DNA of 64,000 nt from an uncultured bacterium (GCA_964372875.1 CAYJTB010000002.1:21576-85575); one strand, 5' to 3'; positions 18,604-35,270 are shown, counted from the stretch's first letter. Translations and numbers: made by a program. The notes: generated by a model not told the origin, from the letters alone.

Positions 18604-19158
18604 GTGGGCAATAAGAAATATACCCTGCAAAGGGGGGTTACGATTTGGTTCACCGGTCTTCCTAGTTCAGGCAAATCCACGGTCGCCCGGATCTTGGAAC
18701 GCAATTTTCGCCAATGGGGTCTCAAATGTGAACTTTTAGATGGCGATGTGATCCGTACCAACCTCAGCAAAGGTCTGGGATTTTCCCGTGAAGACCGTGA
18801 CGCCAACATTAAACGCATCGGTTTTGTGGCGCACCTTTTGACCCGTAATGACGTCATTGCGATGGGTGCTGCGATTTCACCTTTCCGCGAAGCGCGGGAT
18901 TACAATCGCAAACTCATCGGCAATTTCGTCGAAGTGTTTGTGAAATGCTCTGTTGATGAATGTGAGAAACGCGATGTGAAGGGACTTTTTAAGAAAGCCC
19001 GCGCGGGAGAAATCAAAGGTTTTACCGGCGTGGATGATCCTTACGAAGAGCCGCTTCACCCGGAACTTATCTTAGAGACGGAAAAACAATCGGCTGAAGA
19101 GTCGGCGGATATCGTCGTGAAAAAATTGGAAGAGTTAGGATATTTGAAGGCTCAATGA
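18604..19158 (+). CDS. cysC: Adenylylsulfate (APS) kinase
   Basis: GTG start after GGAGGAG. P-loop GVTIWFTGLPSSGKSTVA, and a length typical of CysC. Confidence 0.9.
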   Translation: MGNKKYTLQRGVTIWFTGLPSSGKSTVARILERNFRQWGLKCELLDGDVIRTNLSKGLGFSREDRDANIKRIGFVAHLLTRNDVIAMGAAISPFREARDYNRKLIGNFVEVFVKCSVDECEKRDVKGLFKKARAGEIKGFTGVDDPYEEPLHPELILETEKQSAEESADIVVKKLEELGYLKAQ

Positions 19159-20000
19159 ATCAGGTCGATCTTCACATGCACACCACGCATTCCGACGGCA
19201 CTTTTCTGCCCCGGGATCTTGTGAAGCACGCGAAGGAGCGGGGACTCAAATGCATTTCCGTGACCGATCACGATACCATGTCGAGTTATGAGGAATGCCT
19301 TGATGAGTCAAAAAAGTTAGGGATCGAACTGATTCCAGGAATTGAAATCAGTGCCGATTTTGAGCCGGGGACCCTTCATATTCTTGGGTATTTTCTGGAT
19401 CCCGAGCAGCCGGAGCTAAAGAAAACGCTCCTCGATATTCAAAAAGCACGGCTTGAACGAAATCCTCAGATCATCAAGAAATTAAATAACATCGGAATTG
19501 ATATCACGCTGGAAGAAGTGATTGCTGAATCGGGCGGAAAACAAGTCGGGCGTCCGCATTTCGCGCGGGTACTTTTGAAAAGAGGCTTCATCAAAAACAT
19601 GGAAGAGGCCTTCCGAAAATATTTGGCCAAAGGAAAACCGGGGTACGTGGATAAACGCAGACTTTCTTCTAAAGACGCCATCCAGAGTATTCATCAAGCA
19701 GGCGGGATTGCATCCATCGCGCACCCTAAACAGATGAAACTCCAAGAGCCCGAACTTTCTAAAGAATTCGAGCGGCTCGTGGATGAGGGATTGGGTGGTA
19801 TCGAGGCGTACAATAGTTGCCAAAGCGCTGCCGAAGCCAAGATCTACAAGCAAATCGCAAAACGTTTTAATCTCATCGTTACAGGCGGTAGTGATTTTCA
19901 TGGCGCCAACAAACCCGACGTGCAGTTAGGAAGTTTTGGCGCAGACCTGGACTACAAAGTGATTGAAGACATGAAAAAGTTTGTATGGGTGAAGAAATGA
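19155..20000 (+). CDS. PHP-domain phosphoesterase, probably a 3',5'-nucleotide bisphosphate (pAp) phosphatase
   Basis: VDLHMHTTHSDGT...ISVTDHDT...GGSDFHG are PHP motifs. The gene is translationally coupled between cysC and cysH, which fits the COG0613 pAp phosphatase family. Confidence 0.7.
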   Translation: MNQVDLHMHTTHSDGTFLPRDLVKHAKERGLKCISVTDHDTMSSYEECLDESKKLGIELIPGIEISADFEPGTLHILGYFLDPEQPELKKTLLDIQKARLERNPQIIKKLNNIGIDITLEEVIAESGGKQVGRPHFARVLLKRGFIKNMEEAFRKYLAKGKPGYVDKRRLSSKDAIQSIHQAGGIASIAHPKQMKLQEPELSKEFERLVDEGLGGIEAYNSCQSAAEAKIYKQIAKRFNLIVTGGSDFHGANKPDVQLGSFGADLDYKVIEDMKKFVWVKK

Positions 20001-20024
20001 CCGTCATGACGAATTTGAGGAGCA

Positions 20025-20804
20025 ATGGTGTTGGCAGAACACACGCTTGATCTCGCAAAATTAAATCAGGAGTTCGAAAAGAAAAAGCCGGAAGAGATTA
20101 TTGCTTGGGCGATCAAAGCATTCCCCGGCAAAATCGCAATGACCTCTTCTTTTGGTCCGGAGTCCGGCGTTTTGCTTCATATGGCAAGCCAGATCGATCC
20201 GGGCGTACCCGTTCTTTTCTTAGAAACCGGTTACCATTTTCAGGAAACCATCGTTTATAAAGAAGAGCTCGTAAAACTTTTGGGTCTGACGCGTCTCGTG
20301 GATCTAAAGGCTGAGCCCAAGAGAAAAGCGGAAGTCGTAAAACAATACGAAGGCGTTCCCTACGAAAAAAATCCGGACCTCTGCTGCCAAATCAATAAGG
20401 TCGAGCCCATGGACTTGGCGATGAAAGATTTCGACGCGTGGATGAGCGGTATTCGCCGGCACCAAACGGATTTCAGAAAATCGATTCGCGTTTTTGAAGA
20501 GTACAGGAAACCCGAAACGGGAAACCATCTCTACAAAATTAGCCCCTTAGCCAATTTCACCAGCCGGGAAATGTGGTGGTATCTGAAAGAACACAATATT
20601 CCCAAACACCCTCTCTATGACAAAGGCTATCTCAGTGTCGGCTGCTGGCCCTGCACGCGCCCCGTTCAACCGGGCGATGATGAACGCTCAGGCCGGTGGG
20701 CCGGAAAAACAAAAACAGAATGCGGTATTCACACTTTTTTAGAGATAAAAGAAGAAGAGAAAAAGGAAAAGAAAGACGGAATCAATTATTCGGGTGGAAT
20801 ATAA
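20025..20804 (+). CDS. cysH: Phosphoadenosine-phosphosulfate / adenylylsulfate reductase (thioredoxin-dependent, with Fe-S-type cysteines)
   Basis: The PP-loop-like SSFGPESGVLLH, the C-terminal KTECGIH, and the CC...CxxC cysteines (DLCCQ, GCWPC) are typical of the APS-reductase subclass. Confidence 0.88.
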   Translation: MVLAEHTLDLAKLNQEFEKKKPEEIIAWAIKAFPGKIAMTSSFGPESGVLLHMASQIDPGVPVLFLETGYHFQETIVYKEELVKLLGLTRLVDLKAEPKRKAEVVKQYEGVPYEKNPDLCCQINKVEPMDLAMKDFDAWMSGIRRHQTDFRKSIRVFEEYRKPETGNHLYKISPLANFTSREMWWYLKEHNIPKHPLYDKGYLSVGCWPCTRPVQPGDDERSGRWAGKTKTECGIHTFLEIKEEEKKEKKDGINYSGGI

Positions 20805-20828
20805 AATGAAGGAGAATGATTACATCTA

Positions 20829-22001
20829 ATGATACAGCCCCACGGCGGTAAACTCATCAATCGTGAACTTTCTGGAAACGAAAAAGAAGAGGCCAAGAAA
20901 AAAGTCACAACCCTCAAGACACTTACACTCGCACCCTGCGAAGTTTCAGACCTTGAGATGCTTGCAACAGGTGCTCTGAGTCCCTTAGAAGGATTTATGG
21001 GCCAGGCGGATTTTAATTCCGTTCTGGAAAAAATGCACCTGGCAACGGGGCCTGTGTGGACACTCCCCGTCGTAAAATCCATCTCCGCCGAAGACAAAAA
21101 CAATTTGAAAGCAGGCGAAGAGGTTGCGCTTCAAGATGAAAAAGGCGAAGCACTTGCGATTTTAAAAATCGGCGAGATTTTTCCTTATGATAAAACCAAA
21201 CATGCCCAAAAGGCCTACGGGACTTTAGAAGAAACGCACCCCGGAGTTGCGCGCGTAATGAGCGCCGGAGGATTTTTAGTTTCAGGAAAAATTTCTCTTT
21301 TCCAACGGCCCAAATACACGGATTTTCTCCAATATCGCCTTGATCCCGCAGAGACCAGAAAAACTTTTGAATCACGCGGATGGAAAACCGTGGTGGCTTT
21401 TCAAACGCGCAATCCCATTCACCGGGCCCATGAATACATTCAGAAATGCGCACTGGAAATTGTGGATGGTTTGATGATTCATCCCTTGGTGGGTGCCACC
21501 AAGGGCGACGATGTCCCGGCCGCTGTCCGGATGCGTTGTTACGAAGTCCTCATTGAAAAATATTACCAAAAATCTCGTGTCCTTCTTTCGGTTTTTCCCG
21601 CGGCCATGCGTTATGCGGGCCCCAAAGAGGCGATCTTTCACGCGATTGTGAGAAAAAATTACGGCTGCACGCATTTTATTGTGGGCCGCGACCACGCCGG
21701 AGTTTCAAGACCCGACGGAAAAGGTTTTTATGGTCCCTTCGATGCCCAGAAAATTTTTGATGAATTCAAACCGGGCGAGATCGGTGTGACGCCCTTTTTC
21801 TTCGAAAATTCTTTCTATTGCCGCGCCTGCAAATCCATGGCCACGGAAAAAATTTGTCCGCACGATGCCTCGGGACGCGTCTTTTTAAGCGGGACCAAAG
21901 TCCGCGAGATGCTCCTCAAAGGAGAAATTCCACCGGAAGAGTTTTCACGGCCCGAGGTTGCGCGCGTTTTGCTCGAAGCTTACCAAACCAAGGAGAATTG
22001 A
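20829..22001 (+). CDS. sat: Sulfate adenylyltransferase (ATP sulfurylase)
   Basis: The motifs QTRNPIHRAHE and VGRDHAG are present. Confidence 0.9.
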   Translation: MIQPHGGKLINRELSGNEKEEAKKKVTTLKTLTLAPCEVSDLEMLATGALSPLEGFMGQADFNSVLEKMHLATGPVWTLPVVKSISAEDKNNLKAGEEVALQDEKGEALAILKIGEIFPYDKTKHAQKAYGTLEETHPGVARVMSAGGFLVSGKISLFQRPKYTDFLQYRLDPAETRKTFESRGWKTVVAFQTRNPIHRAHEYIQKCALEIVDGLMIHPLVGATKGDDVPAAVRMRCYEVLIEKYYQKSRVLLSVFPAAMRYAGPKEAIFHAIVRKNYGCTHFIVGRDHAGVSRPDGKGFYGPFDAQKIFDEFKPGEIGVTPFFFENSFYCRACKSMATEKICPHDASGRVFLSGTKVREMLLKGEIPPEEFSRPEVARVLLEAYQTKEN

Positions 22002-22976
22002 TTGTCCGCACCCCAAAGGACAAAACCTGTTCTTGCTGAAGAAGCCATCGGCCTCATCGGCAACACGCCGCTCGTAAAACTTAAAAGAATGGTGAAGCCG
22101 GGCTCCGCCCAAATTTTTGCCAAAATTGAATCGATGAATCCCGGCGGAAGTGTGAAGGACCGGATTTGTCTCAGCATGATTCGTGATGCGGAAGAAAAAG
22201 GCCTCCTCAAAAAAGATTCTGTGATCATTGAAGCCACGAGTGGAAACACAGGAATCGGCCTTGCCCTTATTTCTGCGGTGAGGGGCTACAAACTGATTCT
22301 TACGATGCCCGACTCCATGAGTTATGAAAGGCAATATCTTCTAAGAAGATTTGGGGCCGAGCTTGTTCTTACTCCGGCACTTGAAGGAATGAAAGGGGCC
22401 GTTGAAAAAGCCGAAGAGCTTTCAAAGAAATACAAAAATACTTTTACACCGCAACAGTTTAGTAACCCTGCAAACCCCAAAGTTCACCGCGAGACCACCG
22501 CGGAAGAAATTTGGGAAGCGCTGGACGGAAAATTCGATGCGTTTGTGGCGGGCGTCGGCACCGGAGGAACCATCACCGGATGCGGCGAGGTCTTTAAACA
22601 AAGAAATCCAAAAATTAAAATTATTGCAGTAGAACCTAAGCGTTCGCCCGTTCTTTCAGGCGGTGAGCCTGGGTATCACCGGATCCAAGGAATTGGCGCG
22701 GGTTTTGTACCTGAGGTCTTGAACCGGCGCATCATCGATCAAATTTATCAAGCAGACGATGAAGCCTCTTGGGACATGTCACTTACCTTGGCAAAAGAAG
22801 AGGGATTGTTGGTGGGCGTCTCTTCCGGCGCGGCCTGTGTTGTGGCGCTGCAAGTGGCCAGTGAACTGGGAACTGGAAAAAGTGTGGTAGTTATTTTTCC
22901 TGACACCGGCGAGCGTTACCTTACTTCTGCCGAAGAATTCACACCGCGCGAGAGCGGCGCAAAACGCACTTCATGA
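22002..22976 (+). CDS. cysK: Cysteine synthase A (O-acetylserine sulfhydrylase)
   Basis: TTG start. The PLP lysine block NPGGSVKDR, plus TSGNTGIGLA and GTGGTITG. Confidence 0.88.
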   Translation: MSAPQRTKPVLAEEAIGLIGNTPLVKLKRMVKPGSAQIFAKIESMNPGGSVKDRICLSMIRDAEEKGLLKKDSVIIEATSGNTGIGLALISAVRGYKLILTMPDSMSYERQYLLRRFGAELVLTPALEGMKGAVEKAEELSKKYKNTFTPQQFSNPANPKVHRETTAEEIWEALDGKFDAFVAGVGTGGTITGCGEVFKQRNPKIKIIAVEPKRSPVLSGGEPGYHRIQGIGAGFVPEVLNRRIIDQIYQADDEASWDMSLTLAKEEGLLVGVSSGAACVVALQVASELGTGKSVVVIFPDTGERYLTSAEEFTPRESGAKRTS

Positions 22977-22980
22977 AGCG

Positions 22981-24255
22981 ATGTCATACGTTAAGGGATT
23001 AAAATGCAGAGAGTGCAGCCGTCTTTATCCTAAAGAAGCGATCTATGTTTGCGAATACTGTTTCGGATCGCTCGAAGTTGATTACGATTATGACGCCATC
23101 AAAAAAGTCCTGAGCCGTAAAAAAATTTCTGACGGCCCTCGAAGCCTTTGGCGGTATCGCGAACTCCTTCCCATTGACGGCGACCCAACCGTAGGACTTT
23201 GGTCGGGCTTCACGCCTTTTTTCCGCGCGAAAAATCTGGCAAAGCGTCTGGGCGTTGACGAGCTCTACATTAAAGATGATTCGTCGAGCCATCCCACCTG
23301 GTCTTTTAAAGACCGCGTTGTCTCGATTGCACTTTCCAAGGCGCGCGAACTGGGTTTTGATACAGTCTCCTGCGCTTCCACCGGAAATCTTGCCCACGCT
23401 GTTGCGGCCCACGCGGCCCAAGCCGGATTCAAATGTTATATTTTTATTCCCTCGGATCTTGAACTCGCAAAAATTGTCGGCACGCTTGTTTGCGGTCCCA
23501 CACTCGTGGCGGTCCAAGGAAATTATGATGATGTGAACCGGCTATGCGCTGAAATCGCCGCCCGGTACAAATGGGCGTTTGTGAATATCAATATCCGTCC
23601 TTATTATGCGGAAGGATCCAAGACCTTCGGTTATGAGATCGCAGAACAGCTCGGCTGGCGAACACCTGACCACGTGGTGATTCCGGCAGCAAGCGGCTCG
23701 CTTCTGACAAAAATCTGGAAGGCCTTTAAGGAATTTGAAAAACTGGGGCTTCTTGAAAATTCCGTGAAGACACGTCTTCATTGCGCCCAACCGGACGGAT
23801 GTTCTCCTATCGCCAAGGCCATCTTGGAAAAATCCGAGGTGATCCGTCCTGAAAAACCCAACACGATTGCCAAATCTCTTGCGATCGGAAATCCCGCGGA
23901 CGGTTATTATGCCCGTGATGCCGTGCTACAATCGGGCGGTACCGCCGCACGTGTGAGTGATGATGAGATTCGCGAAGGGATTAAACTTTTGGCCGAGACC
24001 GAAGGTGTTTTTACAGAGACAGCGGGCGGCGTTACGGTTGCCGCAGCGAAAAAATTAATCAACGAAGGAAAAATCAACCGGAAGGAATCGATCGTTCTTG
24101 CCATCACAGGAAACGGTCTCAAGACCCAAGAGGCGATCCAAAAATCCGTGGGTTCACCCCTAGCGATCGAGGCCCACCTTTCTTCATTTGAAGAGCGCGT
24201 GATGGGAAAGTATAATGAGCAGCGTCGCGTCATTGCGAAGGAGCGAAGCGACTGA
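22981..24255 (+). CDS. Threonine-synthase-like PLP enzyme with an N-terminal zinc ribbon (possible MetM-type O-phosphohomoserine sulfhydrylase rather than a true ThrC)
   Basis: The N-terminal CRECSRLYPKEAIYVCEYCFG, the PLP lysine block HPTWSFKDR and ASTGNLA. It is followed directly by a ThiS/MoaD-like gene inside a sulfur-assimilation cluster. Confidence 0.7.
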   Translation: MSYVKGLKCRECSRLYPKEAIYVCEYCFGSLEVDYDYDAIKKVLSRKKISDGPRSLWRYRELLPIDGDPTVGLWSGFTPFFRAKNLAKRLGVDELYIKDDSSSHPTWSFKDRVVSIALSKARELGFDTVSCASTGNLAHAVAAHAAQAGFKCYIFIPSDLELAKIVGTLVCGPTLVAVQGNYDDVNRLCAEIAARYKWAFVNINIRPYYAEGSKTFGYEIAEQLGWRTPDHVVIPAASGSLLTKIWKAFKEFEKLGLLENSVKTRLHCAQPDGCSPIAKAILEKSEVIRPEKPNTIAKSLAIGNPADGYYARDAVLQSGGTAARVSDDEIREGIKLLAETEGVFTETAGGVTVAAAKKLINEGKINRKESIVLAITGNGLKTQEAIQKSVGSPLAIEAHLSSFEERVMGKYNEQRRVIAKERSD

Positions 24256-24304
24256 AGCAATCTCTTGTTGATTGCTTCGTTGGCTAACGCCTCCTCGCAA
24301 TGAC
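24229..24304. repeat. Long imperfect inverted repeat (GTCATTGCGA...TCGCAATGAC type REP-like hairpin), a possible attenuator or RNA-stability element
   Basis: The 5' arm gtcattgcgaaggagcgaagcgactgaagcaatc pairs with the 3' arm gattgcttcgttggctaacgcctcctcgcaatgac. The outer and inner segments pair and the middle forms an internal loop. The repeat overlaps the last codons of the ThrC-like gene. No U-tract follows. Confidence 0.7.
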
Positions 24305-24322
24305 TAATAAGGAGGATTCATC

Positions 24323-24607
24323 ATGCCTGTTAAAGTAAGAATTCCAACGCCCCTTCAAAAATTGACGGCCGATCAAGCGGAAGTCGATATTACTGCCAAA
24401 ACGGTGAAAGAACTTTTAGATGCATTAGAAAAGAAATATCCCGGCATCAAAGGAAGACTTTGTGACGAATCGGGCCGCGTGCGCCGGTTTGTAAACATTT
24501 ATCTCAACGAAGAAGACATCCGGTTCCTCAACCAAGAATCCACGGCACTTAAAGAGGGCGACGAGGTTTCCATCGTTCCTGCCATTGCCGGCGGAAAAAC
24601 TCTCTAA
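24323..24607 (+). CDS. ThiS/MoaD-family sulfur-carrier protein with a C-terminal GG followed by a 3-residue extension (KTL)
   Basis: The SD AAGGAGG lies upstream. The 94-aa sequence has the beta-grasp pattern ...[10 protein letters not shown]...[17 protein letters not shown]. Confidence 0.8.
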
Positions 24608-24854
24608 GATCACCGTGGCAAAAAAAGCGCTTCACCTTATCTTTCCGCAAAATCTCATCCAAGAGCCCATCATGTTCCTGGTGGCTCGCGACAACAATTT
24701 AGTCCTCAGCATTCGACGCGCGAAGATCACAGCGACCGCTGGAGAAGCGACCATCGAACTTGAAGGAAAAGAGAGCGATTTGGTCCAGGCCGAGCGCGTT
24801 TTCAAAGAAAAAGGGGTTCAGGTGAAAAGTGTTTTAGGGGACACGGTGGAATGA
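24585..24854 (+). CDS. NIL-domain (ferredoxin-fold, MetN C-terminal-like) small protein
   Basis: [46 protein letters not shown]...[12 protein letters not shown] resembles the NIL domain. The start is either ATG 24585 (overlapping the previous gene) or GTG 24615. Confidence 0.6.
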
Positions 24855-25855
24855 AAAAAGCCGAGATCCAATCTTTAAAAGAAAAAGTTTTAGCGGGCGG
24901 TGAAATTTCTTTTGAGCAGGCTGTGGAACTTATTCAATTAAACAGCCAGGAAGAAATCCAATCCCTTTTAGAATCGGCCGACGAAATCACGCGACGGTTT
25001 AATTCCAACGAACCCGGCCTCTGTTCGCTTCTAAATGCCAAGAGTTATTTGTGCGGCGAGGACTGCGGGTTTTGCGCCCAATCCGTTCGCTTTGACACCT
25101 CGGCAGACCGGTACGGCCTGATGCATCCCGAAAAAGTTGTGGAGGCCGCAAAACGGGCGGAAAAAAATGGTGCGCAGAATTTCTGCATCGTTACAAGCGG
25201 CGCGGCACCGGGTGAAGAAGAGTTTGAAAAAATTATCGAAATTTTAAAAAAGTTATCTGAGGAATCAAAATTAAACCTTGATGCCTCGTTAGGGTTTATC
25301 ACCGAAGAACAGGCCCGGCGATTAAAAGAAGCGGGCCTCCGGCGTTTTAATCACAATCTTCAAAGCTCCCGCGAGTTTTACCCGAATATTGTTTCTACCC
25401 ATAGTTATGACACACGCATTCAAACCATTCGCGCGCTGGTCCAAGGCGGACTGGAGCTTTGTTCGGGTGGAATCCTCGGAATGGGAGAAACGCACGAAGA
25501 CCGTGTGAAGCTCGCTTTCGAATTAAAACAACACACTCCGCATTGCATCCCAGTCAACGTACTCAATCCCCGGCCCGGCACTCCGCTTGAAAACCAACCC
25601 AAGCCCGACCCGCGTGAGATTTTAAAAACCATTGCTGTCTTTCGCTTCGTCCATCCGCGCGCCAATATCAAATTAGCCGGCGGGCGTGAAATCAATCTCA
25701 CTGCGGAGGAGCAAGTCTTGGCACTGAAAGGCGGTGCCAACGGCCTCATCATGGGAGGCTACCTCACCACCGAAGGCAATCCGGTGCGGGAAGATTTTCG
25801 AATGCTGGAGGAAGCGGGCTACCAAGTTCCACAGCATGAAGCCCGTCCTTCTTAA
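24851..25855 (+). CDS. bioB: Biotin synthase (radical SAM)
   Basis: CGEDCGFCAQS is a CxxxCxxC motif, and the length and downstream blocks are typical of BioB. Confidence 0.9.
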   Translation: MKKAEIQSLKEKVLAGGEISFEQAVELIQLNSQEEIQSLLESADEITRRFNSNEPGLCSLLNAKSYLCGEDCGFCAQSVRFDTSADRYGLMHPEKVVEAAKRAEKNGAQNFCIVTSGAAPGEEEFEKIIEILKKLSEESKLNLDASLGFITEEQARRLKEAGLRRFNHNLQSSREFYPNIVSTHSYDTRIQTIRALVQGGLELCSGGILGMGETHEDRVKLAFELKQHTPHCIPVNVLNPRPGTPLENQPKPDPREILKTIAVFRFVHPRANIKLAGGREINLTAEEQVLALKGGANGLIMGGYLTTEGNPVREDFRMLEEAGYQVPQHEARPS

Positions 25856-25857
25856 GT

Positions 25858-26577
25858 TTGCTTGATCAAAAAAATATCCTCATTACCGGCGGCACCAGCG
25901 CGTTAGGAAGCGCCTTCGTCCGAAAGGCCGTTGGGGCGCACGGCCGCGTTTTTTTCACCTACCATCAGCATGAAACGCTCGCTTCCGAACTCCGCGCACT
26001 AGGCGCAGAAGGTTTTAAACTAGACCTCGCCTCTACCCCACAAATCGATGTCTTCCAAAAAGAATTCAGGGCCAAGGTCAAAATCCTTCATGTCTTAATC
26101 CACAATGCTGCGGCCACGAAAGATGCTACTGTACAAAATATGAGTGACGCCCAGTGGGATGAAGTGATGAACGTCAATCTCAAGGCACCCTATCTTTTAA
26201 CAAAAAAACTTTTGTCTCCGCTTTTTAAGGCTGATCCCGCGAAGATCTTTTTTATGATCAGCCGGGGCGCTCTTCAAGGAATCTTTGGCGCTGCTAATTA
26301 TGCGGCTTCTAAGGCAGGCCTTGTAGCGCTTACCAAATCACTGGCCCAAGAACTGGGGCGGAAAAATATTTTGGTCAATTCCGTGAACCCGGGCTTCATG
26401 AAATCGCGCATGACCGAGCCTCTCCCGCCGGAAGTTTTTGAAAAAAATATCAAAGAAAGCGTGTTGGGAAAAATCTCTAACCCCGACGAAGTCGCCGATT
26501 TTCTAATTTACCTTTCCAGTAACCACATGACCCAAGTGAGCGGCCAAATCTTCCACTTCGAGTCCCGCAAGATATGA
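25858..26577 (+). CDS. Short-chain dehydrogenase/reductase, 3-oxoacyl-ACP reductase-like (FabG-like)
   Basis: TTG start. ILITGGTSALGSAF is the Rossmann motif, and YAASKAG is the catalytic YxxxK. Confidence 0.8.
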   Translation: MLDQKNILITGGTSALGSAFVRKAVGAHGRVFFTYHQHETLASELRALGAEGFKLDLASTPQIDVFQKEFRAKVKILHVLIHNAAATKDATVQNMSDAQWDEVMNVNLKAPYLLTKKLLSPLFKADPAKIFFMISRGALQGIFGAANYAASKAGLVALTKSLAQELGRKNILVNSVNPGFMKSRMTEPLPPEVFEKNIKESVLGKISNPDEVADFLIYLSSNHMTQVSGQIFHFESRKI

Positions 26578-26582
26578 AGCGC

Positions 26583-27117
26583 GCAGAATCTCCGCCTCCG
26601 TGGGATGCTCGGTCATCAGTAAAATCTTTATCCGCTGCAGGCACGAGTCTCGTCGCCACTCGGCGGGAATCCCCCCAAGCTCCTTCGGCGCTCAATGGCT
26701 CCAGCTTTTGGAAAAGACTAAGGCTGCTTCGCCGGGGGTCCCTCGCGGTTCCGGCCTCAGAAGGCCAGCCCGCGCTTCCCCCCCGGACGAATCAGCCGAG
26801 TTTTTCCGAAAAGCCTCCGCTATTCGCGCCCTCCGGACTTGGGGAGATTCCCGAACGTATCACGGTTGCATTAGAAGCAGAATCTCCGAAACTGAGGCGG
26901 CGTAGGGGCCGTACGAGAAAAATTCGGAATCAATTTTTCTCGAGGCCCCACGAGCGGAGGACGACTCCTTGTCCGCTGACTTACCCCTCATTCATGGTTG
27001 CATCTTCCCAGAATACGTTTGCTTCCAAACCGGCCGCGTTCATTTGGCAAAATAACTTTTATGTTTTCTCATCTGTTCAATTGTCGTCCGAGCGTCCGCC
27101 GAAGGAGGAGATTCTGC
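26583..27117. other. Non-coding, GC-rich, highly self-complementary 535-nt element bounded by imperfect 18-nt terminal inverted repeats (a MITE-like insertion or a large structured RNA)
   Basis: GCAGAATCTCCGCCTCCG (26583-26600) faces CGAAGGAGGAGATTCTGC (27100-27117). There is long-range 14/15 complementarity between 26665-26679 and 26838-26852, and a hairpin at 26905-26949 with a perfect 10-bp core. No frame gives a protein-like translation. Confidence 0.6.
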
Positions 27118-27133
27118 TATCAAAGCATGTCGG

Positions 27134-28375
27134 TTGCGGAGGAGTCTCCGAAACGGCAAGGGGAGTTTGCTTGTGAATCGACGAGTTGTGATTACAGGAA
27201 TGGGGGCGGTGACGCCGGCAGGGGTGGGGATTGAGGCATTTCGAAAATCACTGCGGGAGGGCCGGTCGGGATGCGGACCCTTAACATGTTTTGACCTCAC
27301 AGGATTCAAAGTCAAAAATGCTTTCGAGATAAAAAATTTCACACCCCTTCACGGAACCCGTCTCTTGGATCCTTTTATTCAATACGCACTTTGGGCTACC
27401 AATGAAGCGGCTCAGATGGCGCAATTTGATTCTTCATCCATGGATCCTTACCGAATGGGAATTGTGGTCAGTTCCAGCAAGGGAGGGCTTCACTCTTTTG
27501 ACGCGTTTCGCCAGAGGCTTGAACGAAATCCCAGCGTCATCCTTGGCGCGCGCGTTTACTCCAACACGGTTCCGAATTTTGCCGCCCAGTGGATTGCCAG
27601 AAAATGGAAAATATCAGGACCCGCCAAATGTTATGTGACAGCTTGCGCAACGGGTACGACCTCCATTATAGAAGGCGCCCGGATGGTTCAGGAAGACCTG
27701 GTCGATTATGTTTTTGCAGGTGCAGGCGATGCCTCACTTGTTCCTTTTCTTGTGGCAGGGTATGAGCAAATGGGAGTTCTTTCACCCGAGGGAATGTACC
27801 CCTTTGACCAAAGGCGGAAAGGTTTTCTTTTAGGAGAAGGCGCGGGTGTGGTACTCCTCGAAACCCTCGAAAGCGCCGAAGCGCGCGGCGCAAAAATTTA
27901 CGGCGAGATCGCAGGCTTTGCTTACGGAAATGATTGTTACAGTCCGGTGGCCTTTGATCCCAAAGGAGATTCACTCGCCCGAACACTCAAAAAACTTTGT
28001 GATGTTTTAAAAATAAACCCTGAGGAAATCGATTATTTAAACCTTCACGGTACCGGAACCATCGATGGCGATCTTTACGAAACGAATCAAATCAAACGGG
28101 CGTTTGGAAAAAAAGCTTATGAAATTCCTACTAGCTCCACGAAGTCGATCACAGGACACATGCTTGGCGCATCCGGGGCTGTTGAAATCATCGCGTGTTG
28201 TATCGCCATGGAAGAAGGTTTTGTTCCGCCTACCGCCAATTTAGAAAAACCGGATCCCCAATGCGATTTGGATTACACACCGCTCAGGGCACGCAAGCAA
28301 AAAATCCAAACGGCGATTTCTCATTCCATGGGTTTCGGCGGACATATCGCAGCCGTTGCTCTTAGGAAAACATAA
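27134..28375 (+). CDS. Beta-ketoacyl-ACP synthase I/II-like condensing enzyme (FabF-like)
   Basis: RRVVITGMGAVTP, the active-site ACATG and the C-terminal HGTGT...GHxxGAxG blocks are present. The true start is probably TTG 27167 or GTG 27173 rather than ATG 27134. Confidence 0.85.
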   Translation: MRRSLRNGKGSLLVNRRVVITGMGAVTPAGVGIEAFRKSLREGRSGCGPLTCFDLTGFKVKNAFEIKNFTPLHGTRLLDPFIQYALWATNEAAQMAQFDSSSMDPYRMGIVVSSSKGGLHSFDAFRQRLERNPSVILGARVYSNTVPNFAAQWIARKWKISGPAKCYVTACATGTTSIIEGARMVQEDLVDYVFAGAGDASLVPFLVAGYEQMGVLSPEGMYPFDQRRKGFLLGEGAGVVLLETLESAEARGAKIYGEIAGFAYGNDCYSPVAFDPKGDSLARTLKKLCDVLKINPEEIDYLNLHGTGTIDGDLYETNQIKRAFGKKAYEIPTSSTKSITGHMLGASGAVEIIACCIAMEEGFVPPTANLEKPDPQCDLDYTPLRARKQKIQTAISHSMGFGGHIAAVALRKT

Positions 28376-29518
28376 ATGGAAAGCCTCCTTACCACAGAAT
28401 TAAAAGAAATTCGCTTGAAGGGACTCTACCGGAAATTAAAAACGCTTTCTCCCGGCCAAGGCGCCCATGCCGTTTGGCGAGGAAGAGATCTCCTTTTATT
28501 TTGCGGAAATGATTATTTGGGTTTAAGCCGGCACCCTCGTGTTATTCAAGCCGCCCAGGAAACCCTTGAAAAATATGGCATTGGCGCCGGTGCCGCTCGT
28601 TTGATCTCCGGCACAAGCGATTTGCACAGCCAATTGGAAGAGGAACTCGCCCGCTTCAAATCAAAAGAGCGAGCGCTCCTTTTCGGTTCAGGTTATCTGA
28701 CCAATCTTGGAGTCTTGAGTGCCGTTGCCGGAAAAGAAGATCTCATTGTGATGGATAAACTTTGCCACGCCTCACTCATTGACGGGGCCAGACTCTCCGG
28801 CGCCATCATCCGAGTGTTTCCTCACAGAGACTATTCAAAGTGTAAGGAGATTTTAGAAAAAAGCCCCGAGTTTCGCAGGAAAATTCTTGTCTCCGACACT
28901 ATTTTTAGTATGGAGGGTGACCAAGCAGATTTAGAAGAACTTATTCAGATCAAAAATAAGTATAAGTGCCTTCTTGTGGTTGATGATGCGCATGGCGTAG
29001 GAGTCTTCGGCCCGACGGGCAGAGGACTCACCGAGGGAAAAGAAAAAGAAATCGACGTCATTGTGGGGACGCTTTCAAAGGCCTTCGGAGTTTTTGGGGG
29101 TTTTGCCGCAGCCTCTCGAACCCTCGTCGAATATTTCATTAATTTCTCGAGGTCTTTTATTTTTGCGACCGCACCGCCGCCGCTCGTCGCGGCCGCTGGT
29201 TTAGAGGCGCTTCATCTCATTCAAGAGGATCCATCTCTGCGTCAGAAGCTTTGGCGCAATATAGAACAAGTAAAAAAATTTCTCAAACCCCGGAATTTTT
29301 CATTTGAAAAAGCATCGCCTATTTTTCCAATTGTTTTAGGAGATGAGAAAAAAGCCGTAGAAGTTTCAGAGACACTTTTGGAACATGGAATCCTCATCCC
29401 CCCCATTCGGTACCCTTCCGTTCCAAGAGGTAAAGCAAGGCTGCGATTAACGTTAAGCGTCTCCCACACGGAAGAAGATTTGGAACAACTCTTCGAAGTA
29501 CTCCATAAAGTTTTATGA
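28376..29518 (+). CDS. bioF: 8-amino-7-oxononanoate synthase
   Basis: Alpha-oxoamine synthase blocks: NDYLGL, VVDDAHG, and GTLSKAFG with the PLP lysine. Confidence 0.88.
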   Translation: MESLLTTELKEIRLKGLYRKLKTLSPGQGAHAVWRGRDLLLFCGNDYLGLSRHPRVIQAAQETLEKYGIGAGAARLISGTSDLHSQLEEELARFKSKERALLFGSGYLTNLGVLSAVAGKEDLIVMDKLCHASLIDGARLSGAIIRVFPHRDYSKCKEILEKSPEFRRKILVSDTIFSMEGDQADLEELIQIKNKYKCLLVVDDAHGVGVFGPTGRGLTEGKEKEIDVIVGTLSKAFGVFGGFAAASRTLVEYFINFSRSFIFATAPPPLVAAAGLEALHLIQEDPSLRQKLWRNIEQVKKFLKPRNFSFEKASPIFPIVLGDEKKAVEVSETLLEHGILIPPIRYPSVPRGKARLRLTLSVSHTEEDLEQLFEVLHKVL

Positions 29519-30870
29519 GAACAAGACACCTCAAGCAACTCGACAAGAAATATATTTGGCATCCCTTTACGCAAATGGCGGATTGGCAAAAAGAAGACGT
29601 CCTGATTATTGATCGGGCCAAAGGAAATTATTTGATTGATACAAAAGGCAAACGCTATTTGGACGGTGTATCCTCTCTTTGGTGCAACGTTCACGGGCAC
29701 CGGGTAAAAGAAATCGACCACGCCATCAAAAAACAATTGGAAAAAGTAGCACACAGCACTTTTCTCGGGCTTTCCAATGTCCCGGCCATTGAACTCGCCG
29801 AAAAATTAATTTTGATTGCACCGAAAGGACTCACACGGGTTTTTTATTCGGACTCGGGGTCCGAGGCCATGGAAATTGCTCTCAAGATGGCTTACCAATA
29901 TTGGCAGCAAAAAGGAAAAAAGAAGAAGACAAGGTTTCTACGCTTAAGCAATGCTTATCATGGAGACACATTGGGTGCGGTGAGTGTGGGAGGGATCGAA
30001 CTCTTTCATCAAACTTATCGCCCGCTTCTTTTTAAAACCTTCGAGGCGCCGAGTCCCTATGTTTACCGCTGGCCCGCGAAAGGCCGCACAGGGTCGCGCG
30101 AAGAAGTGATGGAAGAGTCTCTAGCCGCACTCGAATCTATCCTGAAAAAACATTCTTCAGAAATCGCCGCACTGGTGATGGAGCCTTTGATACAGGGAGC
30201 GGCCGGCATGATCGATCAACCGAGGGGTTATATTTCAGGAGCGCGAAAACTGACCTTGAGGTACAATACCCTCTTGATTTTTGACGAAGTAGCCACAGGA
30301 TTTGGTCGTACAGGACGGATGTTTGCGTCAGATCACGAAAGGGTGACTCCGGACATTATGGCCGTTGCCAAAGGGCTCACAGGAGGTTATCTCCCACTTG
30401 CGGCAACTCTAACCAAGGAAAACGTTTACAAGGAATTTCTTGGCGACTACTCCGAATTCAAAACTTTCTTTCACGGCCACACTTATACGGCCAATCCGCT
30501 TGCTTGCCGGGCGGCCCTCGCCAACCTCAAAATTTTCCGCACGAAAAAAACGCTTGAGAAATTGCAGGATAAGATCGATCTCTTAAGGAACAGATTGAGT
30601 AGCTTTTCAAATCTCGAACACGTCGGAGACATTCGCCAAACAGGCTTTATGGCCGGAATCGAACTCGTAGAAGATCGCGCTACAAAAAAATCATATCCTG
30701 CGGAACAAAAAATAGGCATCCGTGTGACCCGCGAAGCGCGCAGACGCGGGGTGATTTTACGGCCCTTAGGAAATGTCATCGCCCTCATGCCGCCTCTTGC
30801 GATTACAACCAAGGAACTTCATCAATTGCTAGACGTTACCTGCGAATCCATTAAAACGGTAACCCAATGA
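29515..30870 (+). CDS. bioA: Adenosylmethionine-8-amino-7-oxononanoate aminotransferase
   Basis: Class-III aminotransferase blocks: YSDSGSEAME, IFDEVATGFGRTG and AKGLTGGY. The start overlaps bioF by 4 nt. Confidence 0.9.
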   Translation: MRTRHLKQLDKKYIWHPFTQMADWQKEDVLIIDRAKGNYLIDTKGKRYLDGVSSLWCNVHGHRVKEIDHAIKKQLEKVAHSTFLGLSNVPAIELAEKLILIAPKGLTRVFYSDSGSEAMEIALKMAYQYWQQKGKKKKTRFLRLSNAYHGDTLGAVSVGGIELFHQTYRPLLFKTFEAPSPYVYRWPAKGRTGSREEVMEESLAALESILKKHSSEIAALVMEPLIQGAAGMIDQPRGYISGARKLTLRYNTLLIFDEVATGFGRTGRMFASDHERVTPDIMAVAKGLTGGYLPLAATLTKENVYKEFLGDYSEFKTFFHGHTYTANPLACRAALANLKIFRTKKTLEKLQDKIDLLRNRLSSFSNLEHVGDIRQTGFMAGIELVEDRATKKSYPAEQKIGIRVTREARRRGVILRPLGNVIALMPPLAITTKELHQLLDVTCESIKTVTQ

Positions 30871-31598
30871 AAAAAGCCGCCGGAATTTTTATTATAGGAA
30901 CGGACACAGGCGTCGGAAAAACCGTGGTGGCCGCAGGACTTGCCCTTGTCTTGAAGGAACGCGGCATGCGGGTCGGTGTGATGAAACCCGTAGCGACCGG
31001 ATGTTTTGGAGAGGGGAAGCGGCTTATTTCAGGAGATGCGGTTTATTTATTAGAAGCCGCTGAAAACGAGCGCCCTTATCTTGCCAATCCGCTTCGTTTT
31101 AGAAATCTGCTGGCCCCCAGCGTTGCCAGCGTCATTGAAAAAAAAGAAGTGCCGATTGAAAAAATCTTGAAGGCCTACCGGGAGCTGCAGCGTCATTATG
31201 ATTTTATTATTGTCGAAGGAATCGGCGGACTTTTAGTTCCGCTCACAAAAGATTATTTTGTGGCCAATCTCATTCACGAATTTGGTCTTCCTTTGATGGT
31301 GGTTGCCCGGGGGGGGCTCGGAACTATTAATCACACGCTTCTTACAATAGATGCAGCAATCATTCGGGGGTTTGAAATCCGGGGTATCATTTTTAACCGG
31401 ATGCCGCGTGTCAATTTCTCCATAGCGGAGATCACGAATCCTAAAGTGATCCACGACATCACAGGCATTCCCGTGCTCGGGACGTTGCCGGAACTGGATG
31501 ATGTGGACGTAGAAACCTGCCGCTTTGGGAATCTCAAAGAAGTCTTCCGCGAACGGATTGATCTGGACCAGCTTTTCCGGTTCGAGACCATTTCTTAG
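30867..31598 (+). CDS. bioD: Dethiobiotin synthetase
   Basis: The P-loop GTDTGVGKT and VEGIGGLLVP. The start overlaps bioA by 4 nt. Confidence 0.9.
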   Translation: MKKAAGIFIIGTDTGVGKTVVAAGLALVLKERGMRVGVMKPVATGCFGEGKRLISGDAVYLLEAAENERPYLANPLRFRNLLAPSVASVIEKKEVPIEKILKAYRELQRHYDFIIVEGIGGLLVPLTKDYFVANLIHEFGLPLMVVARGGLGTINHTLLTIDAAIIRGFEIRGIIFNRMPRVNFSIAEITNPKVIHDITGIPVLGTLPELDDVDVETCRFGNLKEVFRERIDLDQLFRFETIS

Positions 31599-31676: not shown

Positions 31677-32762
31677 ATGAAACCAGTGCTTAGGAATCAA
31701 AAAATCCTTGTCGCAATGTCCGGGGGAGTGGACTCGAGTGTGGCGGCCGCTTTGCTTGTGGAGGCGGGCCATGAAGTCGCCGGGGCCACCATTAGGACAT
31801 GGGCGAGCAGCACGTGTGTGGACCGGAACACGCGCTCCTGCTGTGGTCTGACCGGAGTCGAGGATGCGCGAAGCGTGGCCGAGCGGATCGGCATCCGTTA
31901 TTGGGTTTTTAATTTTGAAGAAGAGTTTAAACGCCACGTCGTCGATTATTTCGCCAGCGAATATTTCAAAGGCCGAACCCCCAACCCCTGTATTGCCTGT
32001 AATGAACATATCAAGTTTCGCCTTTTCTTAAAACGCGCCCGCCAACTCGGTTTTGACGCCATCGCCACAGGCCATTATGCGAAGCTCCAAGAAGATCACG
32101 CGGGCAATTGTTATATCGAAGAAGGTGCAGATCCCGCCAAAGATCAATCTTATGTTCTTTTTCCTCTCGATCAAGATGTCTTAACGAATCTTTATCTGCC
32201 GCTGGGAGGTTATCAAAAATCGGAAATCCGTCAGAAGGCGCGCGATCTGGGTCTCAGTGCTGTGATGGAAAAACCGGATTCCCAGGAGATTTGTTTTATC
32301 CCAAGCAATAACCACGGGATTTTTTTACAAAAAGAATTCGATGCCCCTCAACAGGAAGGCGTCATCCGGACAAGAGAAGGAAAGATCCTTGGAAAACACA
32401 CGGGTTATTATCAATATACAAGAGGCCAGCGCCGGGGCCTTGGTGTTGCCTTTACTGAAAAACTTTATGTCCTCGAAACGATCCCCGAAACCAACGAAGT
32501 GATTGTCGGGACCAAAGACGAAGTGCTGGATGTGGAGTTTTGCGTTGCGCGGGTCAATTGGTTTTTAAGGCCTCAAGAAAAAAATTTCAAGGCCCTTGTG
32601 AAAATCCGGTCTCAGCATGTGAAGGCCCCTGCTCAAATCGAGATTCTGAAAGATCAGGAAGTCCGGGTCCATTTTGAAGAGCCCCAAGAAGCCGTCACAG
32701 CAGGTCAGGCCGCCGTTTTTTATGACGGCACCAAAGTTTTAGGTGGCGGGTGGATTGCGTAG
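31677..32762 (+). CDS. mnmA: tRNA-specific 2-thiouridylase
   Basis: The PP-loop VAMSGGVDSSVAA and the blocks ATGHYA and KDQSYVLF. Confidence 0.9.
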   Translation: MKPVLRNQKILVAMSGGVDSSVAAALLVEAGHEVAGATIRTWASSTCVDRNTRSCCGLTGVEDARSVAERIGIRYWVFNFEEEFKRHVVDYFASEYFKGRTPNPCIACNEHIKFRLFLKRARQLGFDAIATGHYAKLQEDHAGNCYIEEGADPAKDQSYVLFPLDQDVLTNLYLPLGGYQKSEIRQKARDLGLSAVMEKPDSQEICFIPSNNHGIFLQKEFDAPQQEGVIRTREGKILGKHTGYYQYTRGQRRGLGVAFTEKLYVLETIPETNEVIVGTKDEVLDVEFCVARVNWFLRPQEKNFKALVKIRSQHVKAPAQIEILKDQEVRVHFEEPQEAVTAGQAAVFYDGTKVLGGGWIA

Positions 32763-33640
32763 ACAAACTCCAGCTTCTTAGGGAGGTCACACTCTCCTAT
32801 AAGAAAGTTCTCGTGGCCTTTTCGGGCGGCGCGGATTCTGCTTTCGTTTTAAAAATTGCCCGCGATGTCCTGGGAAAAGAAAATGTCCTTGGCGTGATTG
32901 CCAAAAGCCCTTCACTTCCCGCGGCTGAACTCGAAGCCGCCAAAAAAATTGCCGAGGAAATTGATGCCCCGCTTCAAGTGATAGAAACGAATGAGCTCGA
33001 AAATTCTTCCTACACCTCCAACTCCATTAACCGCTGTTACTTTTGCAAAACCGAACTTTATTCCCACATGATTCCCTTAGCCCAAAAATTGGGATACCCC
33101 TTTATTTTGAATGGCACGAATCAAGATGACTTAGGGGATTGGCGCCCCGGCCTTAAGGCCGCTGCCGAATACGAAATTAAAAGTCCGTTGGTCGAAGCTG
33201 GTTTTACTAAATCAGAAATCCGCGAGACCTCTCAGTCGCTCGGGCTTTCCACTTGGTCCAAGCCCCAGGCCGCTTGTCTTTCCAGCCGCATTCCTTTTGG
33301 GACTTCGATTACGCCGGAAAGACTCAGCCAAGTCGAAGTCGGAGAAAGCATCCTTAAAGAGCTTGGATTTGAAATCGTGCGCCTTCGCTGGCTCCAAGAA
33401 ACAGCGGTGATTGAAGTCGGCTCTGACGAAACCGGAACTTTTTTTCAAAACCAACACGTGCGCGAAGAATCTCTAGCGAGACTCAAAGCCCTTGGCTTTC
33501 AAAGGATTCAACTTGATCTTCTTGGCTACCGCTCCGGCCGTTTCAATCCAGCGAAATCTTTCTCGCGACCTCTCTTGCCTTCGCCGGACGCTCAGGCGAC
33601 AATCGAGAATACAGAATCAAAACTGGAATATTCCAAATGA
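32750..33640 (+). CDS. PP-loop ATP-utilising enzyme of the LarE / TIGR00268 family (possible sacrificial sulfur transferase)
   Basis: GTG start. The PP-loop VAFSGGADSAFV, CYFCK, and AACLSSRIPFG, which resembles the LarE cysteine motif. No larB or larC is present in the window. Confidence 0.7.
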   Translation: MDCVDKLQLLREVTLSYKKVLVAFSGGADSAFVLKIARDVLGKENVLGVIAKSPSLPAAELEAAKKIAEEIDAPLQVIETNELENSSYTSNSINRCYFCKTELYSHMIPLAQKLGYPFILNGTNQDDLGDWRPGLKAAAEYEIKSPLVEAGFTKSEIRETSQSLGLSTWSKPQAACLSSRIPFGTSITPERLSQVEVGESILKELGFEIVRLRWLQETAVIEVGSDETGTFFQNQHVREESLARLKALGFQRIQLDLLGYRSGRFNPAKSFSRPLLPSPDAQATIENTESKLEYSK

Positions 33641-33998
33641 GGCGAGAGAACGAGAAAGCAAAACTTATTTGTGAAGATGCAGAATCCAAGATTAAAACGG
33701 ATAAGGTGTCGCCTTCGTTCGATGGACCTGGCGAAAAATCTTTTCCGGATTTTTCGCCGACGGTCCAACGCCGACTCCGGCTAATGAGAGGTCGCTTAAA
33801 AAATGGTTTCTCTTGCGGAAGGACACGGCCTGGGCGCGCTCGGAAGGCCGAGCGGGCATGGACTGGCCACCCAATCACTGTCTCTTATTTCTCTTATGGC
33901 CAGGAGCGAGGCCGGACGCGCGGGCGAAACACGCCTCGCTGAGGCGTGTTGAGCGGCGAACGGGACGTTGTACTTCCGCTTGTGGAACTAATCCTGTC

Positions 33999-35270
33999 AT
34001 GAAAGCACTCAAAGGCGGAATTAAGCTTGAAGGAAAAAAAGAGGCGACGACGATGCCATGGACGATCGCAAAGCCTTGGGCATCCAAACGCGTCCGGATT
34101 CCGCTTTGCGGATCCGCTCCGGTAAGTCTTCGCTCCCTTGTTAAAGAAGGCGAGCGAGTTCTGCGGGGTCAAAAAATCGCGGAACCCGAGGATGAAAACT
34201 CTACCGCGGCGCATGCTTCCCTGTCCGGAAAAGTAAATCAGATCGCATCTTTCCCGCACCCCCTTTTTGAAAATTTCGAAGCCATTGAAATTTTATCTGA
34301 CGGAAAAGATGAACCTGCCCAAGGAGTAGGACAAGAGCGCGCGGGATGGGAATCCCTGGAACCGCGTAACATCGTAGGAATTCTCCGTGACTTGGGAGTC
34401 ATCTCGCTTCTTCCCGCCCTTTCTCACCCTATCGACACTCTTATTATCAACGGCTGCGAATCCGAGCCGTATCTTACGTCAGAATATTGTCTGATGATGA
34501 GTCATCCTTCGGAAATCTTAAAGGGCGCGGAAATTTTAAGACGCGCTTTAGGGGCCCAAGATGTGATCTTGGCCGTGGAGGATAATAAAGAAGACGCCGC
34601 GGAACTATTCAAAAGCAAAATTTTTTTGGCCCGCTCCAACGTGCGGGTAAAGATGCCGCCTGCGCGTTATCCCCAAGGCAATGAAAAAATTCTCATCCGT
34701 GAAATTTTGGGAAGAAGAATTCATCACGGAGATCACCCGGCAAAATCCGGAGTGGTTGTTTTTGATATCGCAACCGCCCACGCCGCGTTTGAAGCCGTCG
34801 TGTTGCAAAAACCATTTTATGAAACGGTGGTCACGATCGGCGGCGAGTGTGTCGCCCAGCCGAAGAATTTTTGGCTTCGCGCGGGGACCTTGGTGGAAGA
34901 TGCGATCAAGCACTCCAAAGGTTTCCTAAGAAAACCGGCCAAGACGATTCTGGGAGGGCCGATGAGCGGTACTGAACTTTTAACGTTGGATGTTCCCGTC
35001 CTTAAAAGATCGGCCGCGATTCTGGGTCTTCCGCCTGAAGTGGCGAAACCGGAATCGATCGAGCCTTGCATCCGCTGCGGGCTCTGTGTGGATAATTGCC
35101 CGGCTTATATTTCTCCCGTGATGATTACACTGGCCGCCGAAAAAGATCTTTTCGATGTCGCCCAAGAGTATGATGCCCGCCTTTGTATTGAATGCGGAAA
35201 CTGCTCCTACGTTTGTCCCTCCAAACGTCCGATGGTGGAACTGATTCAATACGCGAATGCCAATTCCTAA
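33999..35270 (+). CDS. rnfC: RnfC-like electron-transport subunit (two 4Fe-4S ferredoxin motifs)
   Basis: The ORF is open from 33813, but ATG 33999 (MKALKGGIKLEG) is the plausible start. INGCESEPYLTSEY, CIRCGLCVDNCP and CIECGNCSYVCP are present. Confidence 0.75.
   Translation: MKALKGGIKLEGKKEATTMPWTIAKPWASKRVRIPLCGSAPVSLRSLVKEGERVLRGQKIAEPEDENSTAAHASLSGKVNQIASFPHPLFENFEAIEILSDGKDEPAQGVGQERAGWESLEPRNIVGILRDLGVISLLPALSHPIDTLIINGCESEPYLTSEYCLMMSHPSEILKGAEILRRALGAQDVILAVEDNKEDAAELFKSKIFLARSNVRVKMPPARYPQGNEKILIREILGRRIHHGDHPAKSGVVVFDIATAHAAFEAVVLQKPFYETVVTIGGECVAQPKNFWLRAGTLVEDAIKHSKGFLRKPAKTILGGPMSGTELLTLDVPVLKRSAAILGLPPEVAKPESIEPCIRCGLCVDNCPAYISPVMITLAAEKDLFDVAQEYDARLCIECGNCSYVCPSKRPMVELIQYANANS

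Follow-up and report, generated by a model that had tools for sequence, protein, structure and literature searches.

A biotin operon on a 64,000-nt stretch of DNA from an uncultured bacterium (GCA_964372875.1 CAYJTB010000002.1:21576-85575; this whole stretch is referred to as the window) raises the question of how the pimeloyl thioester consumed by BioF is made. Two genes resembling those of fatty acid synthesis (FAS) lie between bioB and bioF; one encodes a FabG-like short-chain dehydrogenase/reductase (SDR) and the other a FabF-like 3-ketoacyl-acyl carrier protein synthase (KAS). We consider it probable, with some reserve, that both proteins are dedicated to biotin synthesis and make the pimeloyl (C7 dicarboxylate) thioester for BioF from intermediates carrying a free carboxyl group and not a methyl ester. 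The operon occupies positions 24851-31598, with the bioB start and the bioD stop as its exact limits, and every gene is on the + strand:

24851-25855, + strand: bioB, biotin synthase (Radical_SAM and BATS domains; TIGR00433, 376.5 bits vs. a cut-off of 225)
25858-26577, + strand: bio-cluster SDR, a FabG-like 3-oxoacyl reductase paralogue of 239 amino acids (aa) (adh_short and KR domains)
26578-27172, no strand assigned: non-coding spacer of 595 nt, the gap between SDR and KAS (no match in Pfam, no match in Rfam)
27173-28375, + strand: bio-cluster KAS II-type ketosynthase of 400 aa (N and C domains of ketoacyl-synt)
28376-29518, + strand: bioF, 8-amino-7-oxononanoate synthase, which consumes the pimeloyl thioester (TIGR00858, 435 bits vs. 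426)
29515-30870, + strand: bioA (TIGR00508, 559 bits vs. 405)
30867-31598, + strand: bioD (TIGR00347, 153 bits vs. 83)

The order bioB, SDR, structured element, KAS I/II-like gene, bioF, bioA, bioD had been given in a preliminary description of the locus and was borne out by the domain and equivalog calls, with all four late biotin genes (bioB, bioF, bioA and bioD) scoring above their NCBIfam equivalog cut-offs. The ATG of bioB shares an ATGA overlap with the stop of the upstream NIL-domain gene. The KAS starts with GTG, with AAGGGGAG just upstream, at the position of the ATG in the two closest relatives (L009 and L011).

Pfam analysis was performed on 51 of the 52 open reading frames (ORFs) of at least 80 aa in the window, the one left out being a 4108-aa ORF at 6105-18431. 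No BioC-type methyltransferase, alpha/beta-hydrolase esterase (BioH), BioW, P450 (BioI-type) or KAS III (BioZ-type) was found among them; the absence of these enzymes, previously claimed for the locus, holds across the 64-kb window. The same scan returned no PP-binding acyl carrier protein (ACP), no FabZ/FabA/MaoC protein and no enoyl reductase, and the only methyltransferases were the tRNA methyltransferase TrmD (46871-47584) and PrmC beside RF1. Three ACPs, FabH and FabD, used as phmmer queries on every stop-to-stop ORF in the window with 40 aa or more, gave zero matches.

Four pimeloyl routes are established, and the type seen in the window is not among them: two need oxygen (BioI, BioE), one uses the BioC/BioH methyl ester, and one is confined to alpha-proteobacteria (PNAS December 2025, PMC12704756). 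The comparison with Desulfovibrio made in the preliminary description proved apt. In D. vulgaris Hildenborough, which lacks bioC and bioH, genetic evidence shows that growth without biotin depends on a FAS-like bio cluster, the chemistry of which is unresolved (PMC10102598). This extended cluster comprises DVU2558-DVU2565 and DVU1220, with FabF-like, FabG-like, ACP, two FabZ-like and a nitroreductase-like gene needed, and clusters of its type have been reported only in Desulfobacterota and Chrysiogenota (PMC10102598). The window resembles it in having FabF-like and FabG-like genes between bioB and bioF/A/D in an anaerobe, and the two would share the logic of dedicated FAS-like enzymes making a pimeloyl thioester without methyl esters. 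Desulfovibrio, in contrast, has a specialized ACP, two FabZ-like proteins and a nitroreductase-like protein, none of which is present in the window or its cluster; it also belongs to a different phylum, and the window operon (Omnitrophota and relatives) is fused to a sulfur-assimilation/ThiS operon. The Desulfovibrio-type cluster was reportedly treated also by Rodionov in 2004 and by Lin and Cronan in 2011.

To place the two FAS-like proteins relative to housekeeping FabF and FabG, we compared family scores, sequence identities and, for the KAS, a neighbour-joining tree. The KAS scored 380 bits against the FabF equivalog TIGR03150 (cut-off 494) and 357 bits against the subfamily NF005589 (cut-off 387), and the SDR scored 176 bits against the FabG equivalog TIGR01830 (cut-off 298). 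As outgroup for the tree we used 79 housekeeping FabF among the matches listed in a genome scan (mostly ordinary FabF), most of which adjoin FabG and ACP and four of which are from Omnitrophota. The bio-linked KAS clade excluded all 79 in 60 of 60 bootstraps. The SDR was set apart by score and identity: its identity to FabG of E. coli and Omnitrophota is 28-31%, and bio-linked SDRs match it with 219-476 bits vs. 90-137 bits for FabGs. Given the separate KAS clade, the scores below cut-off and the low identity of the SDR, the two proteins do not cluster with housekeeping FabF and FabG, and these comparisons identify both genes, at the level of sequence, as dedicated paralogues that travel with the bio genes.

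Folds and catalytic residues are the same in the bio-cluster and housekeeping enzymes, yet housekeeping FabF sits beside acpP whereas the bio-cluster KAS sits in the bio operon. In the fully annotated Omnitrophota locus L028 a plsX-fabH-fabD-fabG-acpP-fabF cluster is separate from the bio genes, and another Omnitrophota locus (L057) carries fabG-acpP-fabF. Searching a representative library of 1.8 billion proteins for relatives of the KAS, we observed that the best single-domain match outside the query's own cluster falls from 519 to 375 bits and that the matches are dominated by polyketide synthases with multiple ketosynthase domains. The best PDB matches of the KAS were FabF structures (E = 1e-85), and single-domain FabG structures were near the best matches of the SDR (E = 1e-34). 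Its top PDB match, yeast (3R)-hydroxyacyl-CoA dehydrogenase, was discarded as an artefact of two summed domains, the single-domain FabG structures scoring higher. An Omnitrophota "KAS II" typified by P0298 was likewise rejected as a housekeeping FabF; its close relative P0433 sits in a bio cluster, which places it in the bio clade.

The closest homologues of the KAS and SDR, with up to 90-91% identity, come from groundwater metagenomes, and the named ones are Candidatus Omnitrophota. Among the best 120 matches of each protein search, all at least 56% identical to the query, every named one is from Omnitrophota/Omnitrophica, and the host lineage of the operon is probably Omnitrophota. About ten divergent loci (from L001-L011, L014 and L015), several of them named Omnitrophota, share the order bioB-SDR-KAS-bioF-bioA-bioD, mostly downstream of the same sulfur-assimilation/ThiS/NIL block; KAS identity across the loci sharing this order is 44-90%. 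Omnitrophota assemblies with bioB-SDR-KAS-bioF include GCA_030698625.1 and GCA_043718225.1. No ACP was found in the clusters of L001-L008, L014 and L015, and no dehydratase in the relatives' clusters with the shared order. The compact two-enzyme version recognized earlier is conserved across these loci, and smaller, KAS-only layouts also exist. In L013 (8001-12138) the genes after the KAS are one for a 327-aa protein, in which the sole domain match is a weak N-terminal one to Rossmann proteins, then bioF and bioD. Both bioA and the SDR are absent there, and the 327-aa protein may be a BioU-like replacement of BioA. In L097 a more distant KAS adjoins bioB (bioB-KAS). Both of these KAS carry the lysine gate described below. 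Between the window and L009, dN/dS was 0.059 for the SDR and 0.068 for the KAS. Given such values (0.06-0.07) between two lineages, both genes are under strong purifying selection.

These data bear on whether the KAS and SDR could belong to another pathway (lipid, polyketide or lipoate precursor) and lie among bio genes by chance or through shared regulation. KAS/SDR pairs do occur in many secondary pathways, and sulfur-assimilation genes already make a mosaic of the operon. Still, the position between bioB and bioF is kept over 44-90% KAS identity, three other architectures are all bio-linked, and ACP, thioesterase and tailoring genes are absent alongside the pair; we regard this explanation as very improbable.

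The catalytic residues of the window KAS, C158, H292, H329, K324 and F388 (the Cys-His-His, Lys335 and Phe400 gate of FabF), are invariant in the clade, so that the complete decarboxylating Cys-His-His-Lys-Phe machinery of FabF would be kept. The AlphaFold model of the KAS has a predicted local distance difference test score (pLDDT) of 94 and superposes on FabF structures with a template modelling (TM) score of 0.96 and a root-mean-square deviation of 1.7-1.9 Å; because of this superposition the mapping of residues between the two proteins is safe. In E. coli FabF, I108 and F202 form a "back gate" at about C7-C8 of the bound chain, the I108F replacement limits elongation to short chains, and the glutaryl-ACP methyl ester on the active-site cysteine is of C7-equivalent length (PMC9006962). 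We found that the I108 position is K103 in the window KAS (codon 27479-27481) and the F202 position is Y197 (codon 27761-27763). The lysine is present in 23 of 23 bio-family KAS (20 clade members and three further relatives), while Lys or Arg occurs there in none of 78 housekeeping FabF; the tyrosine is present in 22 of 23. In addition, FabF G105 and G107 are replaced by Ser in bio-linked KAS, so that an SSSKGG motif (S100-S101-S102-K103-G-G in the window) takes the place of GxGIGG, and other pocket residues become bulkier (V134 to Y/F, G198 to L/M/F, P272 to F). A search of the literature, in which coverage is incomplete, returned no description of such a Lys/Tyr gate or of the lost docking patch described below.

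The classical objection to making pimelate from malonates is that the hydrophobic sites of FAS enzymes refuse a free carboxyl, which BioC and BioH bypass by methylation (PMC7645780). The Lys/Tyr/Ser change led us to propose that in the window the carboxylate would be accepted by the enzyme itself, in a condensation of glutaryl and malonyl units. Lys103 and Tyr197, flanked by the serines and the bulkier residues, would shorten the pocket and hold the terminal carboxylate of a short dicarboxylic primer in a polar, cationic clamp, glutaryl (C5) being the best-fitting primer. This gives a concrete structural hypothesis, in which the Lys/Tyr pair replaces the hydrophobic gate at the site expected for the methyl ester in E. 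coli FabF. The E. coli BioC-BioH pathway has the same end product for BioF and the same FAS-type chemistry; it masks the charge, whereas the window operon is without methyltransferase and esterase and its enzyme appears to be adapted to the charge.

Conversely, the pair could serve a BioC/BioH methyl-ester pathway encoded elsewhere, as biotin-dedicated copies of FabF and FabG acting on methyl-ester intermediates. The part of the genome seen amounts to 64 kb, and pathway-specific duplicates of FAS enzymes are common. However, a methyl ester mimics a hydrophobic chain and needs no invariant Lys/Tyr/Ser cluster at the gate, and D. vulgaris, with an analogous cluster, is without bioC and bioH (PMC10102598). 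A survey of 176 complete Omnitrophota genomes scored the biotin pathway as only partial, although bioC and bioH are not among the genes that it lists (bioRxiv 10.64898/2026.06.07.730766). The text of Omnitrophota surveys gives the pathway as partial or not universal, leaves the SDR and KAS genes unmentioned and does not report on bioC or bioH. On balance we consider the methyl-ester explanation unlikely.

The surface of the KAS also differs from that of FabF. Six basic residues of FabF (K65, R68, K69, R127, K128 and R206) dock the acidic AcpP (PMC7138838). In the window KAS R68 is the sole survivor and the other five are lost; on average 0.8 of the six are kept in the bio KAS clade vs. 4.8 in housekeeping FabF. 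The lost patch hints at CoA or an unusual carrier, as far as can be judged from the residues, and the carrier may be ACP or CoA. The dedicated pimeloyl-ACP route put forward in the preliminary description is supported as regards a dedicated route, by the separate clade and the bio linkage; its product, however, may not be an ACP thioester, since the docking residues are lost.

The SDR retains an intact Asn-Ser-Tyr-Lys tetrad (N107, S135, Y148, K152). Two arginines distinguish the bio-linked SDRs from FabG: R136 (codon 26263-26265), directly after the catalytic Ser, is Arg in 20 of 22 bio SDRs and Val in FabG, and R237 (codon 26566-26568), near the C-terminus, is Arg in all 22 and Gly in FabG. 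We infer a role for these clade-specific arginines in the reduction proposed below. At the same time, Arg15 and Asn145 of FabG are lost in the bio SDRs, the R15 position being Ser in 19 of 22; the R129 position is variable and the R172 position is Lys in 19 of 22. We take Arg15 of FabG to be the contact to the NADPH phosphate, and Arg129 and Arg172 to be the ACP-docking residues.

In the route we propose, condensation of glutaryl and malonyl thioesters by the KAS would yield a 3-oxopimeloyl thioester, and the SDR, with its two clade-specific arginines, would reduce the 3-oxo group. The cluster has no genes for the dehydration and enoyl reduction steps, which would presumably be borrowed from the FabZ and enoyl reductase of housekeeping FAS II, after which BioF would consume the pimeloyl thioester. 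There are hints that the KAS/SDR pair may also make the glutaryl unit, from two malonyl units, the dedicated SDR being the clue.

A condensing enzyme of this kind has a counterpart in BioZ, the KAS III-type glutaryl-CoA:malonyl-ACP condensing enzyme of alpha-proteobacteria. In BioZ two serines anchor the C5 carboxyl of glutaryl-CoA (PMC12625853). Both are bio-encoded, with a free-carboxyl primer (proposed for the window), a polar anchor in the pocket and the finishing steps borrowed from FAS II. BioZ has, however, a FabH fold with a Cys-His-Asn triad, while the window KAS has a FabF fold with Cys-His-His and no ACP_syn_III domain, and it is accompanied by a dedicated reductase; the resemblance would be convergent. 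This parallel brings in a simpler, BioZ-like scheme, in which the KAS joins glutaryl-CoA from catabolism to one malonyl unit and is the sole essential dedicated enzyme, with the SDR as an accessory. KAS-only layouts adjoin bio genes in L013 and L097, the position of the gate suits a C5 primer better than a C3 primer, and loss of the ACP-docking patch is expected with a CoA primer. Moreover, E. coli FabG, FabA and FabI convert the free-carboxyl product of BioZ to pimeloyl-ACP (PMC7645780), so that such enzymes would be able to complete the chain. Yet the SDR of the core layout is conserved and subject to strong purifying selection, which is hard to explain if housekeeping FabG sufficed, and the window shows no source of glutaryl-CoA. 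We rate the single-step scheme as possible but clearly less probable than a dedicated SDR and KAS pair.

Several points weigh against the proposal of a dedicated pair working on free-carboxyl intermediates. The KAS/SDR family is known from sequence and models, and the distance of Lys103 and Tyr197 from Cys158 is predicted by homology to FabF. In the model of the SDR, pLDDT falls below 50 exactly at the R136 and R237 loops. The dedicated SDR is unexplained if housekeeping FabG reduces 3-oxopimeloyl-ACP, as it does in E. coli. Judged from the residues, the loss of the FabF docking positions does not fit a simple pimeloyl-ACP picture. The window KAS and SDR are likened to DVU2563 and DVU2561 by cluster content and description, not by sequence. 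Finally, the status of bioC and bioH may differ beyond the 64-kb window, and BioC/BioH, BioW, a second ACP or a source of glutaryl-CoA may lie outside it.

With these points in mind, the window operon is supported as a compact version of a known, chemically unresolved kind of system, for which the gate offers a specific structural rationale. The synthesis of pimelate in many anaerobes is still an open question, the Desulfovibrio cluster having genetic support only, and the locus described here offers a much smaller set, one condensing enzyme and one reductase, in a largely uncultured group. If our proposal is true, metabolic reconstructions that score the biotin pathway of Omnitrophota as partial would have to be corrected. 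More tentatively, the Lys-gated KAS II family could be the core of a fifth, O2-independent pimelate route in addition to BioC-BioH, BioI-BioW, BioZ and BioE, running on malonate and glutarate thioesters of CoA or a non-canonical carrier, with the ACP-docking surface given up. Such a route, which we put forward as a speculative extension, would realize the old proposal of condensing malonates with a free carboxyl, once dismissed on structural grounds, and would make the KAS the sole dedicated enzyme needed in some lineages.

Next, we analyzed the structured element between the SDR and KAS genes. Its existence, noted in the preliminary description, was confirmed (595 nt; folding z = -8.65 on the + strand and -6.26 on the - strand), but it is not a part of the conserved cluster, being a mobile-element insertion absent from most relatives. 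In relatives with KAS up to 77% identical the spacer is missing and the SDR stop and KAS start abut or overlap, which identifies the 595 nt as an insertion. A homologous but fast-diverging spacer was seen in the two closest relatives, L009 and L011. The spacer has 30-nt terminal inverted repeats (26583-26612 and 27088-27117, 83% complementary), and the copies of the element in the window are as follows:

26878-27128, + strand: intact element unit of about 240 nt, with ends GCAGAATCTCC...GGAGATTCTGC (nhmmer E = 1e-75)
26583-26623, - strand: degenerate second copy with a recognizable end, inverted; left arm of the 30-nt repeat (nhmmer E = 8e-4 to the 3′ end of the unit)
33577-33783, - strand: dispersed copy of the element, located where the LarE-like gene ends and in the gap preceding rnfC (nhmmer E = 1e-37)

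The head-to-head arrangement of the intact unit and the inverted degenerate copy accounts for the extreme fold energy of the spacer, and the copy at 33577-33783 shows that the element is dispersed in this genome. A homologue was also found beside an aldo/keto reductase gene on an unrelated metagenome contig, L096 (E = 5e-79). No obvious target-site duplication was noted at the element ends on reading, and there is no transposase in the window. From these features the spacer is identified as a lineage-specific, apparently recent insertion of a mobile inverted-repeat element resembling miniature inverted-repeat transposable elements, outside the biotin system.

Since the SDR stop and KAS start abut or overlap in relatives and are 595 nt apart here, the insertion might cripple the cluster by uncoupling or terminating the expression of KAS-bioF-bioA-bioD; the great stability of the fold and the GTG start of the KAS would be in line with this. 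We consider such damage highly unlikely: no ORF is broken, the KAS is preceded by a ribosome-binding site of its own (AAGGGGAG), neither a terminator-like nor a promoter-like site was found in the spacer, and dN/dS is 0.06-0.15 for SDR, KAS and BioF in two lineages sharing the insertion.

Other identities of the spacer were rejected. Rfam gave no match at gathering thresholds over the whole window, and chance-level matches (E > 1) at permissive thresholds over 26400-27400, which speaks against a known RNA. An ORF of 200 aa (26574-27176) is a low-complexity read-through and its protein is not conserved in the closest relative L009. In Desulfovibrio an ACP gene lies between those for FabG and FabF, which made a decayed gene for ACP or FabZ worth considering here; Pfam gave no match for the 200-aa ORF, however, and the search for ACP-like ORFs was negative. 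A biotin-specific regulator was dismissed as well, the element being missing in most relatives and having copies in unrelated contexts. The same SDR-KAS junction is occupied in the Omnitrophota locus L014 (3120-9218) by a four-gene insertion, consisting of 3′-phosphoadenosine 5′-phosphosulfate (PAPS) reductase, a CysN/CysC-like GTPase-kinase and two small ORFs of unknown function.

Other variations were observed among the related clusters. Locus L015 (8377-15363) has the order ThiS, NIL, SDR, KAS, bioF, bioA, bioD, with no bioB between NIL and SDR; its bioB must be located elsewhere or be missing from that genome. Extra genes between bioF and bioA occur at L007 11242-12366 and L005 10425-11201; one encodes a protein of 374 aa that matches TPR weakly, the other a GGDEF-domain protein.

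The bio genes of the window are embedded in a sulfur-themed block that is kept in relatives. Upstream (18604-24854) lie genes for adenosine 5′-phosphosulfate kinase, a PHP phosphoesterase, PAPS reductase, ATP sulfurylase, CysK-like and ThrC-like proteins and a ThiS/MoaD-like carrier, followed by the NIL-domain protein overlapping the bioB start; downstream (31677-33640) are MnmA and a LarE-like sacrificial sulfur transferase. Candidate roles of the ThiS/NIL pair are cysteine or homocysteine synthesis, or the supply of sulfur to BioB. The 4108-aa ORF (6105-18431, - strand) is a single reading frame in which an 84-182-nt DNA repeat occurs six to seven times, dispersed over 10255-15908; these are repeats at the protein level, and the ORF fits the "very long proteins" reported for Omnitrophota. 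With 485 aa from a TTG start, the rnfC ORF (33813-35270) exceeds its homologues (394-443 aa) by approximately 40-90 aa; the 5′ portion is a read-through of non-coding DNA beside the element copy, and the true start is probably near 34000-34100.

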